Shown in pieces: positions 8,173 through 10,702 of a DNA stretch of 23,972 nucleotides. The stretch's first letter is position 1; each line of letters starts with the position of its first letter. This stretch comes from a virus (taxonomy: Duplodnaviria > Heunggongvirae > Uroviricota > Caudoviricetes): IMG/VR virus record IMGVR_UViG_2534681933_000011, one strand, 5' to 3'. The position numbers and the translations under genes were made by a program. The notes under the pieces are model-generated. The model was not told the origin of the DNA. It did not search any database and saw nothing but the letters and a program-made list of their open reading frames with translations.

Positions 8173-9482
8173 AAGAGGTGGGCTGGACCAGCCTGTTTCA
8201 GGCGGTGGCTGAGCCCTTTGCCGGCGCCTGGCAGCAGGGTGTGAAAGCCGATCCGGAAAGTGTCCTCTCCTTTCATGCGGTGTTTTCTTGCATTTCGCTG
8301 ATATCCCAGGATATCGCCAAAATGCGGCTGCGCCTGATGCAGACGGATACACAGGGGATCCGCTGTGAAAAACGGCAGGGGGATATTGCCCGTCTCTGTC
8401 GTCGTCCCAATGCACAGCAGAATCGTATCCAGTTTTTTGAACTGTGGCTGAACGCCAAACTGCGTCACGGCAATACGGTGGTGCTGAAAATCCGTAACTC
8501 CCGGGGGCAGATCAAAGAACTGCGTATTCTGGACTGGAGCCGGGTTGAACCTCTGGTGGCGGATGACGGCGAGGTGTTCTATCGCATCACGCCGGACCGG
8601 AACTGCGGGATCACGGAGGCGGTGACGGTGCCTGCCCGGGAAGTGATCCACGACCGGTTTAACTGTTTTTTTCATCCGCTTGTGGGGCTGCCGCCGGTGT
8701 ATGCCGCCGGGCTGGCGGCCACGCAGGGGCATCATATTCAGGAAAATTCGACGTCTTTTTTCAGAAATGGCGGCAGGCCGTCCGGGGTGATTGAGATCCC
8801 CGGCAGTATTACGGAAGAAAATGCGAAAAAACTGAAGAGCAACTGGGACAGCGGGTATACCGGCGAAAATGCGGGGAAAACGGCCATTTTGAGCAACGGG
8901 GCAAAATACAACCCCACGACGTTTTCACCGGTGGATGCGCAGACGGTGGAACAACTGAAGATGACCGCTGAAATTGTCTGTTCGGTGTTCCGTGTCCCGG
9001 CCTACAAGATTGGCGTTGGCCAGCCACCTTCCAGTGACAACGTGGAGGCGCTGGAGCAGCAGTATTATTCCCAGTGCCTGCAGACGCTGATTGAGTCCAT
9101 TGAACTGTTACTGGATGAGGCGCTGGAAACGGGGGAAAACGAGAGTACGGAGTTTGACGTCACCACGCTGCTGAGAATGGACAGCGAACGGCGCATGAAA
9201 ACGCTGGGTGAGTCGGTGAAAAATACGCTTCTCACGCCCAATGAGGCCCGTAAACGTGAGAACCTGCCGCCCCTTGCGGGAGGTGATGCACTGTATCTTC
9301 AGCAGCAGAACTACAGTCTGGAGGCGCTGTCCCGTCGTGATGCCCGTGAAGATCCGTTTGCGTCGTCCGGGAAAAGAGTTTCAGCCCAACTGCCTGACGG
9401 CGCATCTGACGGTAATAAGGCAATCAGTGAAACAGAGCATGGTGCGGTGAAAGCGATGTTGAGGGGGATACTGCGAAAATGA
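8118..9482 (+). CDS. Portal protein (HK97 family)
   Basis: 454 aa; central region FFRNGGRPSGVIEIPGSITEENAKKLKSNWDSGYTGENAGKTAILSNGAKYNPTTFSPVDAQTVEQLKMTAEIVCSVFRVPAYKIG is typical of HK97-type portals. Confidence 0.85.
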   Translation: MWNLLRRTRKNQKSGRDVKEVGWTSLFQAVAEPFAGAWQQGVKADPESVLSFHAVFSCISLISQDIAKMRLRLMQTDTQGIRCEKRQGDIARLCRRPNAQQNRIQFFELWLNAKLRHGNTVVLKIRNSRGQIKELRILDWSRVEPLVADDGEVFYRITPDRNCGITEAVTVPAREVIHDRFNCFFHPLVGLPPVYAAGLAATQGHHIQENSTSFFRNGGRPSGVIEIPGSITEENAKKLKSNWDSGYTGENAGKTAILSNGAKYNPTTFSPVDAQTVEQLKMTAEIVCSVFRVPAYKIGVGQPPSSDNVEALEQQYYSQCLQTLIESIELLLDEALETGENESTEFDVTTLLRMDSERRMKTLGESVKNTLLTPNEARKRENLPPLAGGDALYLQQQNYSLEALSRRDAREDPFASSGKRVSAQLPDGASDGNKAISETEHGAVKAMLRGILRK

Positions 9483-10702
9483 CGGAACGGGAACTGTCCA
9501 TTATTCGTGCACTGGGAGAAGAATTCGCCACGGTGCTGGCGGATTTACAGCGCACATTTGAGGAGAAGATGGCCGCGCAGGCACAAGCGTTTGAAGAGAA
9601 ACTGGCTTCCCTGTCGGCGGTATTACAGAAGCATGTGACGGTGGATGAGGTACATCCGGTTCTGCAGGCGATGGTGGATGACGCTGTGGGGACCATTCCG
9701 GTACCGCGTGATGGTCGTGATTATGATCCGGATGTACTGCAGCAGGCGGTGAATGATGCGGTTGCGAATATTCCGGTACCGGCGGACGGCAAAAGTATCA
9801 CCCCCGATGATGTGCGTCCGATGCTTGAGCAGATGGTGAAAGAGGCCGTAAGCCATATCCCTGCTCCGCGTGATGGTCGTGATTACGATCCGGAAGTACT
9901 GAAGCAGGTGGTGAATGATGCTGTCGGGAGCATTCCTGTACCGGCAGACGGCAAAAGTCTCACCCCGGATGATGTGCGTCCGATGCTTGAGCAGATGGTG
10001 AAAGAGGCGGTAAGCCATATTCCTGTTCCGCGTGATGGTCGTGACTACGATCCGGAAGTACTGAAGCAGGCGGTGAATGATGCGGTCGCGAAAATACCGG
10101 TGCCGGCAGACGGCAAAAGTATCACCCCCGATGATGTGCGTCCGATGCTTGAGCAGATGGTGAAAGAGGCTGTAAGCCATATCCCTGCTCCGCGTGATGG
10201 TCGTGATTACGATCCGGATGTTCTGCGGAAGGCGGTTCTGGAGGCGGTGAATGCCCTGCCGGCTCCGCAGGACGGGCGTGATGCCACGGCTCTGGAAGTG
10301 CTCCCCGCTATTGACGATCAAAAATCCTTTCCCCGGGGCACGTATGCCACACACCTGGGAGGATTCTGGCGGGCGTATGAAAAAACGCACGGGATGCGGG
10401 GATGGGAATGCCTGGTTGACGGGGTGGCGGATATTGACGTCAGTATGACGGGGGAGCGGTTGTTCTCTGTGGTGATCCGGCACAGCAGTGGCCAGCGTAC
10501 GGAAAAAACATTTTCCCTGCCGGTGATGCTCTACCGCGGTGTGTTCAGAGCCGGTGAAACCTACCACCCCGGTGATACGGTGACGTGGGGGGGCTCGCTG
10601 TGGCACTGCAACAGTATGACCGGTGATAAACCCGGAGAAGCTCATTCATCAGGCTGGACCCTGGCTGCAAAACGTGGACGGGATGCAGGAGGCGGAAAAT
10701 GA
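9479..10702 (+). CDS. Head-module protein of unknown function with about 3.5 tandem 54-aa repeats
   Basis: 407 aa: coiled-coil-like N-terminus, then repeats of ...DGKSITPDDVRPMLEQMVKEAVSHIPAPRDGRDYDPEVLKQAVNDAVxxIPVPA..., then a distinct C-terminal domain; start overlaps the portal stop (ATGA). Confidence 0.6.
   Translation: MTERELSIIRALGEEFATVLADLQRTFEEKMAAQAQAFEEKLASLSAVLQKHVTVDEVHPVLQAMVDDAVGTIPVPRDGRDYDPDVLQQAVNDAVANIPVPADGKSITPDDVRPMLEQMVKEAVSHIPAPRDGRDYDPEVLKQVVNDAVGSIPVPADGKSLTPDDVRPMLEQMVKEAVSHIPVPRDGRDYDPEVLKQAVNDAVAKIPVPADGKSITPDDVRPMLEQMVKEAVSHIPAPRDGRDYDPDVLRKAVLEAVNALPAPQDGRDATALEVLPAIDDQKSFPRGTYATHLGGFWRAYEKTHGMRGWECLVDGVADIDVSMTGERLFSVVIRHSSGQRTEKTFSLPVMLYRGVFRAGETYHPGDTVTWGGSLWHCNSMTGDKPGEAHSSGWTLAAKRGRDAGGGK
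9690..10270 (+). repeat. Tandem direct repeats, 162-bp unit, about 3.5 copies, in-frame within the coding sequence
   Basis: Unit starts near 9786, 9948 and 10110 (acggcaaaagt[a/c]tcacccc...), near-identical at nucleotide level, plus a partial leading copy; period is a multiple of 3. Confidence 0.8.

Follow-up and report, generated by a model that had tools for sequence, protein, structure and literature searches.

A fibre-like accessory protein encoded between the portal and head-tail adaptor genes of HK97-like siphophages

Fibritin (wac) of phage T4 consists of an N-terminal attachment segment, a segmented helical stalk with short loops, and a C-terminal folded domain. The protein described here, the 407-aa fibre-like product (ECs1975-type) of a gene that we call X, follows the same plan of attachment segment, stalk and tip, and its gene adjoins neck and adaptor genes in a 23,972-nt stretch of Caudoviricetes DNA (IMG/VR record IMGVR_UViG_2534681933_000011, referred to as the window). 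X nevertheless lacks sequence or detectable fold similarity to fibritin, its stalk is built of proline turns plus helices rather than a heptad coiled coil, its tip is CBM-like rather than a foldon, and its own location at the neck is putative. The accessory fibres phi29 gp8.5 and SPP1 gp12, which have a helix-turn stalk or collagen-like repeats, also resemble X, part of whose relatives bear collagen repeats, although we detected no homology between them and X. Many copies of these fibres decorate each capsid, at hexamers or quasi-three-fold sites, and their genes adjoin the capsid gene, whereas X is linked, and sometimes fused, to the portal. Together with T4 Hoc, they are the models for a location of X on the capsid surface.

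A different comparison is offered by SPP1 gp7 and Mu gpF (PF04233). In other siphophages the gene position directly after the portal is occupied by portal-bound internal proteins of this type, which are often fused to the portal. X shares with them both the gene position and natural fusions to the portal C-terminus, a likeness that implies a direct interaction between X and the portal. X is, however, acidic, fibrous and CBM-tipped, whereas proteins of the gp7/gpF type are compact, basic and DNA-binding, and X had no Pfam or PHROG match to the Mu F-like family (PF04233) or related families. With the HK97-family portal itself, X shares only adjacency and, in some alleles, fusion. Finally, the tip of X contains modules that resemble CBM5/12 modules binding chitin or cellulose, such as the chitin-binding domains of ChiC, ChiA1 and ChiB and the CBM5 of Erwinia EGZ, except that the X modules sit inside a larger domain of 145 aa with an intervening beta hairpin. 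CBM5/12-like modules are also present in phage fibres and in All3316, a protein of the Anabaena injection system, and may serve protein-protein contacts there.

Architecture and variation of X

As the initial annotation had it, a 407-aa ORF lies between the portal and head-tail adaptor genes, at positions 9479 to 10702 of the window (plus strand, as are all features given here unless stated otherwise), with an ATG start codon and a TGA stop at 10700-10702. The N-terminal region (aa 1-72; 9479-9694) comprises an amphipathic helix at aa 3-49 and one more helix in an AF2 model of low confidence. A helix of this type was present in all family members inspected, and in fused alleles this end of X adjoins the portal C-terminus; we infer that the N-terminal region is the end that attaches X to the virion. 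An antisense ORF at 9623-10645 (340 aa) was rejected as a gene, as its product is His/Arg/Ile-rich nonsense and the longest open stretch at this place varies from 86 to 427 codons across homologues, with no conservation.

The stalk (aa 73-261; 9695-10261) was delimited with Tandem Repeats Finder, unit alignment and the structural model, and is made of seven half-units of 27 aa. Tandem Repeats Finder reported one array at 9704-10236 with a period of 162, 3.3 copies, 90% matches, no indels and a score of 884 against a threshold of 50. At the protein level, full 54-aa units begin at aa 73, 127 and 181 and are followed by the first 27 aa of a fourth, which agrees with the earlier count of about 3.5 copies. 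The DNA copies had been described as nearly identical, but they are only similar: pairwise identities are 88.9-92.6%, and any two copies differ in 8-9 codons synonymously and in 3-7 non-synonymously. Each unit is composed of two diverged half-units, IPxPRDGRDYDP plus a helix and IPVPADGKSxTPDD plus a helix, so that a Pro/Asp/Gly turn is followed each time by a helix of 12-17 aa, and helix and loop alternate in the AF2 model. The model of the full-length monomer has a pLDDT of 56.5, with regular helix-loop modules, and its quality was too low for a fold search. The net charge is -13 for the stalk and -19.5 for the whole protein.

The earlier suggestion that copy number might change was borne out among E. 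coli relatives, whose X alleles measure 245, 299, 353, 407, 461, 515 and 569 aa, in steps of 54 aa. Alleles of 353, 407, 461 and 569 aa were found even on a single, identical 530-bp flank haplotype. Unequal recombination between the 162-bp repeats would shift the length of the stalk by 54 aa at a time. Since the repeat number changes fast, it could provide a typing marker for EHEC prophages. The same repeats break short-read assemblies, which accounts for the many 'partial' portal records.

The initial annotation had pointed to a coiled-coil-like N-terminus and a distinct Trp/Gly-rich C-terminal part, and the N-terminal helix and the C-terminal domain both appear in the structure predictions. 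The conserved C-terminal beta domain (aa 262-407; 10262-10699) was modeled by AF2 with a mean pLDDT of 84 and a core above 90, and contains the small three-stranded beta fold of chitin-binding domains. The second of its CBM5/12-like modules is at aa 353-399 (10535-10675; RGVFRAGETYHPGDTVTWGGSLWHC...KPGE...GWTLAAKR). The putative first module, at aa 283-327 (10325-10459; SFPRGTYATHLGGFWRAYEKTHGMRGWEC...), was recognized from a profile-profile match to the second over 26 columns (P = 1.7e-4, match probability 49%) and is assigned with weak to moderate confidence. The window protein matched CBM_5_12 with an E-value of 0.0018 and 18.7 bits, below the Pfam gathering threshold of 26.2. Among 104 relatives of X, 74 matched the model at E <= 0.01 (best 3.2e-8), and precomputed PF02839 assignments exist for many homologues. 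Trp and Tyr positions are conserved in the family alignments, and glycan binding is a predicted activity of the domain. The family had gone unrecognized in the initial annotation, and the libraries searched indeed hold no curated family covering X, but with its CBM5/12-like modules the C-terminal domain is no orphan fold. The NCBIfam search gave nothing meaningful, and a full-length sequence search of the PDB returned only designed helical repeats (E ~0.3). Precomputed Pfam accession PF28083 is attached to E. coli X proteins, and a recent curated family may therefore exist for the N-terminal or repeat part.

A word-indexed protein search retrieved 1,453 homologues of X, a single-sequence scan of genome contigs found 13 close relatives, and clustering at 50% identity leaves 5,587 representatives of the family. 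All loci examined in Gamma- and Betaproteobacteria have the gene order portal, X and gp6-like adaptor, and in these loci X keeps its position despite changes in the arrangement of capsid and protease genes. Conservation within the family is highest in the C-terminal domain, with ~50-60% identity between gamma- and betaproteobacterial members. Purifying selection acts on X, with pN/pS of 0.22 for the C-terminal domain and 0.35 for the N-terminal region. Collagen repeats (PF01391) are present in 18 of the 104 relatives (best E = 3e-21), and neither the translation nor the Pfam search revealed such runs of Gly-X-Y triplets in the X of the window. A search of the literature on Stx phage portals, head fibres, portal extensions and phages BP-4795, FSL SP-016 and 2851 found no functional data, virion proteomics, electron microscopy, genetics or structure for any member of the X family.

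The portal-X junction

The portal gene at 8118-9482 encodes a 454-aa protein of the HK97 type (PF04860, E = 2.9e-80; TIGR01537, E = 1e-105), and the ORF covers both models completely. It ends in a C-terminal tail (9330-9479) that consists of a low-complexity linker of ~40 aa and a short amphipathic helix motif (...AVKAMLRGILRK*). A tail with this terminal helix motif was present in every examined portal of the clade, in a reading frame that is conserved across genera, and is a candidate docking site for the N-terminal helix of X. The portal stop and X start codons overlap as ATGA at 9479-9482, which may couple the translation of the two genes. A run of five G residues (G5; 9463-9467) in the junction sequence also resembles a Shine-Dalgarno element 12-16 nt upstream of the X ATG. 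At the other end of X, the ATG of the gp6-like head-tail adaptor gene Ad1 (10699-11025; PF05135, E = 6.3e-8; phrog_40) overlaps the X stop codon, again as ATGA.

With G5, portal and X are separate ORFs, and with six G residues (G6) they are read in frame as a fusion of ~860 aa. The G6 junction reads ...RGDT(A/E)KMTERE and exactly matches the fused proteins P0001 and P0023. In complete E. coli genomes, about one copy in two carries G6, the fused allele occurring at 1,338 places in 752 of these genomes and the three main split haplotypes at ~1,380 places. The initial annotation had not mentioned this tie between X and the portal. The fused allele is also present in the genome records of phage 2851, YYZ-2008, Stx2a_WGPS6 and phi330, and phage 2851 is reportedly infectious. 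The fusion of phage 2851 is EP2851_54 (859 aa); phage BP-4795 carries a split allele, its X being ORF59 (461 aa). The fused lineage, too, shows purifying selection on X. A second portal-X fusion, P0242 (1,237 aa; PF04860 and CBM_5_12), comes from a distant lineage.

The fused reading ...RGDTEKM is restricted to one E. coli lineage, which differs from split lineages at 15-40 positions in 530 bp. In other genera, AGAGGA or a related purine-rich sequence stands where the window has its G-run. The portal and X ORFs overlap by 4-20 nt (4, 8, 11, 14 or 20) in all genera examined, and protein sequences from different genera share the split frame, with the portal ending ...KAMLRGLLTK* and an overlapping ATG following. 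On these sequence comparisons, the split arrangement is ancestral.

X goes by the name of portal protein in GenBank, RefSeq and PHROGs, and public annotation also treats it as part of a frameshifted portal pseudogene. The pseudogene call on the split locus arises because G6 copies yield the ~860-aa fusion, and phrog_2271 ('portal protein', 859 positions) joins the portal (1-451) to X (455-859). NCBI names the X homologues of 284-294 aa gp6-like head-tail connectors. Neither name applied when X was searched, as aa 1-407 have no match to PF04860 or TIGR01537 and none to PF05135, whose member is the next gene, at 10699-11025. The portal name on X is an annotation carry-over.

Could the locus be a frameshifted, non-functional portal, with the 407-aa ORF an out-of-frame remnant, as RefSeq/PGAP has read it? 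PGAP annotates positions 4559773-4562357 of the strain 2013C-4465 record, which correspond to 8118-10702 of the window, as one pseudo, frameshifted portal (the strain is 100% identical to the window over 9300-9700), and intact fused proteins do exist. However, the split frame is shared across genera whereas the fused reading belongs to one E. coli lineage, no part of the family models is missing from the 454-aa portal, X in split alleles is under purifying selection, and nearly all of the ~5,600 representatives are standalone proteins. The broken-portal reading, to which we give hardly any credence, is thus already contradicted by the comparative data available from sequence. A further idea is that the ratio of portal to fusion is set at the G-run by a programmed switch, through either -1 ribosomal frameshifting or phase variation. 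A P-site tRNA-Gly could slip by -1 at G GGG, the zero frame continues with the rare codon AUA, runs of five and of six are both common, and three flank haplotypes carry both G5 and G6. Against this, the portal frame reads AGG GGG AUA and offers no canonical X_XXY_YYZ heptamer, the offset of X from the portal frame varies (-1 or +1, depending on the lineage), the AGAGGA of other genera is no G-run, and G5 and G6 are for the most part each fixed in lineages of their own. Between most G5 loci and the closest G6 locus there are differences at 15-40 of 530 positions, and the mixed haplotypes (3 of 57) each consist of one G5 member in a G6 background and may be sequencing errors, since two of the three have truncated ORFs. 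We largely reject a programmed switch and consider it very improbable.

Possible locations and roles of X

The head-neck module of HK97-like siphophages contains, in X, a genuine structural accessory gene that is translated separately and is neither a portal nor a broken portal. Our preferred reading of its function, held tentatively, is that X forms a glycan-binding fibre at the portal vertex in low copy number. X is translated from its own ATG, which lies downstream of the purine-rich G-run and overlaps the portal stop, and would form a long fibre, probably a trimer, of which a few copies would sit at the neck or collar. The trimeric state is proposed by analogy, because some relatives bear collagen repeats. 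The N-terminal amphipathic helix would anchor the fibre to the portal or adaptor region, the acidic stalk of proline-turn-plus-helix modules would act as a spacer, and the C-terminal domain with its two CBM5/12-like modules would bind a conserved glycan. Both the anchoring by the N-terminal helix and the position outside the neck are proposed parts of this scheme.

Some observations stand against a neck fibre. The fused allele is as common as the split one, with X still selected there. The C-termini of solved portals lie in the crown, inside the capsid, and a fused X would therefore be unable to reach the exterior of the neck; in the fused lineage X could act externally only through internal initiation at the retained ATG. 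In addition, the distal domain is the most conserved part of X, the opposite of what is typical of receptor-binding fibres.

A serious rival, although in our estimate an unlikely one, is that X lies inside the head, tethered to the portal crown. The N-terminal helix of X would bind the helix at the end of the portal's flexible tail, a tether that fusion makes covalent, and up to twelve copies would lie on the inner side of the portal, from which release or ejection via the tail might be possible. The tip might then bind a universally conserved glycan, for instance the peptidoglycan strands of the periplasm. Such a tether is favored by a fusion to the portal C-terminus that is natural, abundant and under selection, by the linker-plus-helix tail of each examined portal of the clade, and by the place of X directly downstream of the portal, overlapping its stop, in all lineages examined, which is the place of the internal SPP1 gp7/Mu gpF-type proteins. 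Conservation of the tip across E. coli, Pseudomonas and Variovorax hosts likewise fits a conserved ligand. P0242 would add a second fusion in a distant lineage, but a frameshift artefact could explain this single metagenomic protein. Moreover, X has no similarity to the Mu F/gp7 families, its stalk is strongly acidic and hypervariable in length, and collagen and CBM5/12 features occur in external fibres and decorations; we know of no internal or ejected phage protein that has collagen triple-helix repeats or CBM5/12 modules. Slightly more doubtful is the extended proposal that X represents a new class of internal siphophage protein, a portal-crown fibre, with a covalent link to the portal in half of the E. 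coli alleles, that is slender enough to exit via the tail and whose tip binds peptidoglycan or another conserved envelope glycan, thereby guiding or anchoring DNA delivery.

The initial annotation had suggested, from the position of the gene, a decoration, scaffold-like or virion surface protein. A scaffold-like role found no support, while a fibre-like or surface role in the virion fits the architecture. A many-copy head fibre or decoration at hexamers or three-fold sites, with a tip for adherence to surfaces or mucus, could likewise draw on that architecture, on the collagen-bearing relatives, on the CBM-like tip and on the position of X within the head module. It is less likely than a role at the portal vertex because the gene accompanies the portal and adaptor genes rather than the capsid gene. 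The overlap with the low-copy portal gene also suggests low expression, and fusion to the portal is hard to square with a many-copy capsid site. Overall, we regard a capsid decoration as improbable and retain the low-copy fibre at the portal vertex as the preferred reading.

Whichever location proves correct, X was found in every examined locus of the portal clade, including those of the long-tailed Stx1, Stx2a and Stx2c phages, and thousands of records misname it as a phage portal protein or gp6-like head-tail connector. The RefSeq pseudogene flag on the ancestral two-gene layout likewise understates the intactness of Stx and other lambdoid prophages. As an external glycan-binding fibre, X might influence adsorption, host range or gut retention; an internal X would be a portal-associated or ejection protein of a new kind. 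With split and fused alleles about equally frequent in E. coli, nature has provided an experiment on the location of X in the virion.

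Architecture and repeat dynamics of X

The 407-aa ORF encoded between the portal and the head-tail adaptor (9479-10702, + strand; hereafter X) is present as the initial annotation described it, and we hold firmly that it is a real, separate and conserved gene. Tandem Repeats Finder reported a sole array over X (9704-10236; period 162, 3.3 copies, 90% matches, no indels, score 884), which in the protein corresponds to three full 54-aa units and then the first half of a fourth. Calling the DNA copies nearly identical overstated the case, as their identity is 88.9-92.6%. Each 54-aa unit is made up of two diverged 27-aa half-units, in which a Pro/Asp/Gly-rich turn is followed by a helix. 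A 340-codon antisense ORF across the repeats was dismissed as a by-product; homologues do not conserve the antisense frame. Two short arrays were also found elsewhere in the window with the same program, a T/G-rich ~20-bp unit in 2.5 copies (989-1039) and a 27-bp unit in 2 copies within the small terminase gene (2866-2919).

Intact alleles of 245, 299, 353, 407, 461, 515 and 569 aa occur alike in backgrounds where portal and X are split and where they are fused, with the Stx2_EH1910 allele at 299 aa and the BP-4795 allele at 461 aa, and a single 530-bp flank haplotype bears 353-, 407-, 461- and 569-aa alleles. This spectrum of lengths, varied even on one flank haplotype, is in keeping with frequent unequal exchange between the 162-bp units, the kind of recombination originally proposed, and we consider the repeat dynamics confirmed. 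The repeats evidently also break short-read assemblies: many IMG/VR contigs (L195, L196, L200, L217 and others in our locus collection) stop ~360 bp past the portal stop codon, inside the 162-bp repeats, and hundreds of NCBI entries are labelled 'phage portal protein, partial' (seen among the collected proteins P0002-P0120).

The C-terminal 157 residues of X have a confident predicted fold that is all beta (mean pLDDT 84, core above 90). A family profile matched All3316 (E 3.4e-4) and chitin-binding domains (E 0.003-0.008) in the PDB, the Pfam CBM_5_12 family matched 74 of 104 diverse relatives, and the nearest folds in BFVD belong to phage collagen-repeat, CBM5/12 and tail-fibre proteins. There is weak support (hhalign P 1.7e-4, 26 columns) for another copy of the CBM5/12-like motif further upstream. 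The full-length monomer model is poor (pLDDT 56.5), with a helix at aa 3-49 followed by eight short helices separated by loops of ~12 residues. The stalk is acidic (net charge -13), and genuine collagen repeats are found in the stalk of 18 of the 104 relatives (best E 3e-21). In one relative the repeat matches the pancreatic-polypeptide family, in which a polyproline helix packs against an alpha helix, a hint of the fold that a proline-turn-plus-helix unit may adopt. That X is fibre-like and that its tip has a CBM5/12-like fold are firm conclusions, and X is best placed among phage fibre proteins, of which it is a new variant.

An exhaustive search returned 5,587 cluster representatives (50% identity) at E<=1e-3 and 627 at E<=1e-30, and the best 150 listed range in length from 85 to 1,237 aa, the shortest being fragments. 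Nearly all members are standalone and share one plan, in which an amphipathic helix of ~40 aa at the N-terminus is followed by a stalk that varies in length and then by a conserved C-terminal domain of ~150 aa with at most ~40 more residues after it. The only other portal fusion among the 150 best representatives is P0242, a metagenomic protein of 1,237 aa whose lineage is distant and whose stalk comprises ~20 repeats (PEPEPLPDIxxMVKxAVxxIxLP type); either the two genes fused independently here, or a frameshift in the assembly joined them artificially. X directly follows the portal gene in 38 of 38 IMG/VR loci that have enough downstream sequence and portals 51-69% identical to that of the window, a position unaffected by whether the protease and capsid genes are joined. 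X is a fixed member of the portal/neck gene block in every locus examined, and its genetic tie to portal and adaptor is likewise firm.

Split and fused alleles at the portal-X junction

PHROG 2271 ('portal protein', 859 positions) matches the window portal over positions 1-451 and X over 455-859, and many E. coli 'phage portal protein' entries are in-frame fusions that read ...AVKAMFRGDT(E/A)K-MTERELSIIRALGEEF.... In the window, a run of five G residues (G5, 9463-9467) precedes the portal end, ...AMLRGILRK*, and the portal TGA overlaps the ATG of X (ATGA). A sixth residue in the run (G6) joins the two ORFs. Sakai has G5, as does BP-4795, where ORF58 and ORF59 are separate, and G6 is carried by phage 2851 (EP2851_54, 859 aa), YYZ-2008, Stx2a_WGPS6, phi330 and ST131 chromosomes (861 aa). 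Phage 2851 is reportedly infectious. Across 5,426 complete E. coli genomes the junction region occurs at 2,915 places; the main G6 haplotype accounts for 1,338 places in 752 genomes, and the three main G5 haplotypes account for 708, 190 and 482 places. IMG/VR contigs and a few public records gave 77 G5 against 42 G6.

A portal ending in ...KAM(L/I)RG(L/I)LTK*, in the same frame as in the window, is followed by a gene that begins at the overlapping ATG (MNERELS...) in Kosakonia, Enterobacter, Atlantibacter, Phytobacter, Buttiauxella, Citrobacter and Salmonella phage FSL SP-016. Metagenomic relatives and those in Pseudomonas syringae and Variovorax likewise have two genes, which overlap by 4 to 20 nt. 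The split form is therefore ancestral, and the fusion is the gain of one G (+1) within a single lineage of E. coli, set apart from the split lineages by 15-40 differences over 530 flanking positions. The G-run aligns with AGAGGA of other genera, 12-16 nt 5' of the X ATG, and probably also serves as a Shine-Dalgarno-like element.

Since X lies in the -1 frame relative to the portal in some lineages but in the +1 frame in others, and the portal frame contains no canonical slippery heptamer, a conserved programmed frameshift at the junction is unlikely. Fast phase switching at the G-run is not supported either: just three of 57 haplotypes are mixed, each with one G5 member, and truncated ORFs occur in two of the three. 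In phi330 (vB_EcoS_phi330, PV189401.1, locus L125, 3380-4910), which belongs to the fused lineage, an extra CT inserted ~70 nt 5' of the G-run makes the portal end early and re-separates the ORFs, and a frameshift lies within the X C-domain. Either change could be a sequencing error, or the changes could have been selected as second-site changes in lytic propagation. X is under purifying selection in split and fused forms alike, with pN/pS of 0.22 (split) and 0.17 (fused) in the C-domain and of 0.35 and 0.42, respectively, in the N-terminal region.

Gene neighborhood of X in the window

The E. coli prophage in the window is lambdoid and long-tailed, and the genes present are those of its late region. 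Over the portal and X, 93 phage records show 90-97% identity to the window, most of them EHEC long-tailed Stx1a-, Stx2a- and Stx2c-converting phages, and X corresponds to ECs_1975 in prophage Sp10 of E. coli O157 Sakai. An HNH endonuclease gene (1777-2307) lies upstream of the small terminase gene (2423-2986), a layout typical of HNH-assisted cos packaging, and HNH fragments were found at the equivalent position in relatives. Between the end of the large terminase gene (2983-4644) and the start of the prohead protease/major capsid fusion gene (5969-7906), a spacer of ~60 nt in relatives, sits an IS3-family insertion (4691-5904; orfA, 4691-5038; orfB, 4858-5904, with rve and HTH_21 domains). 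Late-gene expression may suffer polar effects from the insertion, and the prophage is thus possibly defective. A 73-aa ORF (7951-8172), for which no family match was found, separates the capsid gene from the HK97-type portal gene (8118-9482) and overlaps its annotated start by 55 nt; of the relatives examined, which range from Enterobacteriaceae to those in Pseudomonas and Variovorax, nearly all have an equivalent small ORF of 51-129 aa at this place.

Downstream of X are genes for the gp6-like adaptor (10699-11025), a head closure protein, a gp10-like protein and the tail terminator, and lambda-like tail genes as far as gpJ complete the gene order. The major tail tube protein (12167-12952) has a C-terminal immunoglobulin-like domain (Ig_2 and I-set matches), a putative second surface adhesion module on the same virion. 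The tail assembly chaperone pair, Phage_TAC_1 (12958-13332) and Phage_tail_T (13356-13637), is arranged like lambda G/GT, and by analogy a programmed -1 frameshift is expected.

Virion location and annotation of X

We found no experimental data for any member of the X family. Our preferred but tentative reading is that X may form an external fibre at the portal vertex (neck). The collagen-bearing relatives, the fold class of the tip, which is that of fibre tips, the hypervariable, acidic stalk and the position of the gene between portal and adaptor all favour such a location. The fused lineage would then need internal initiation at the retained ATG, a hypothetical step for which the nested in-frame initiation of lambda C/Nu3 is a precedent. 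A serious but less likely alternative is that X is an internal protein tethered to the portal. Alleles with X fused to the portal C-terminus are abundant and subject to selection, and in solved portals this terminus lies inside the capsid. Moreover, every portal of the clade examined has a tail comprising a flexible linker and a terminal amphipathic helix, the gene position after the portal is that of portal-bound minor head proteins in other phages, such as SPP1 gp7, and the X tip is unusually conserved across very different hosts. It is improbable that X is a many-copy capsid decoration, and that the locus is a pseudogene is very hard to credit.

Members of the X family are named 'phage portal protein', 'phage gp6-like head-tail connector protein' or 'carbohydrate binding domain' in databases, and none of these is suitable save the last, for the tip only. 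E. coli X proteins have the precomputed Pfam accession PF28083. In strain 2013C-4465 (NZ_CP015241.1, locus L004), which is 100% identical to the window over 9300-9700, the equivalent of 8118-10702 is annotated by RefSeq/PGAP as one frameshifted 'phage portal protein' pseudogene, a call that likely stems from the use of fused G6 alleles as reference proteins. Mis-annotation of the split arrangement is probably systematic and, across the complete genomes of E. coli, would extend to well over a thousand loci. X is a widely mis-annotated, uncharacterised component that all examined loci of this HK97-like head-neck module contain. Because split and fused alleles occur naturally, where X sits and what it does can readily be tested.
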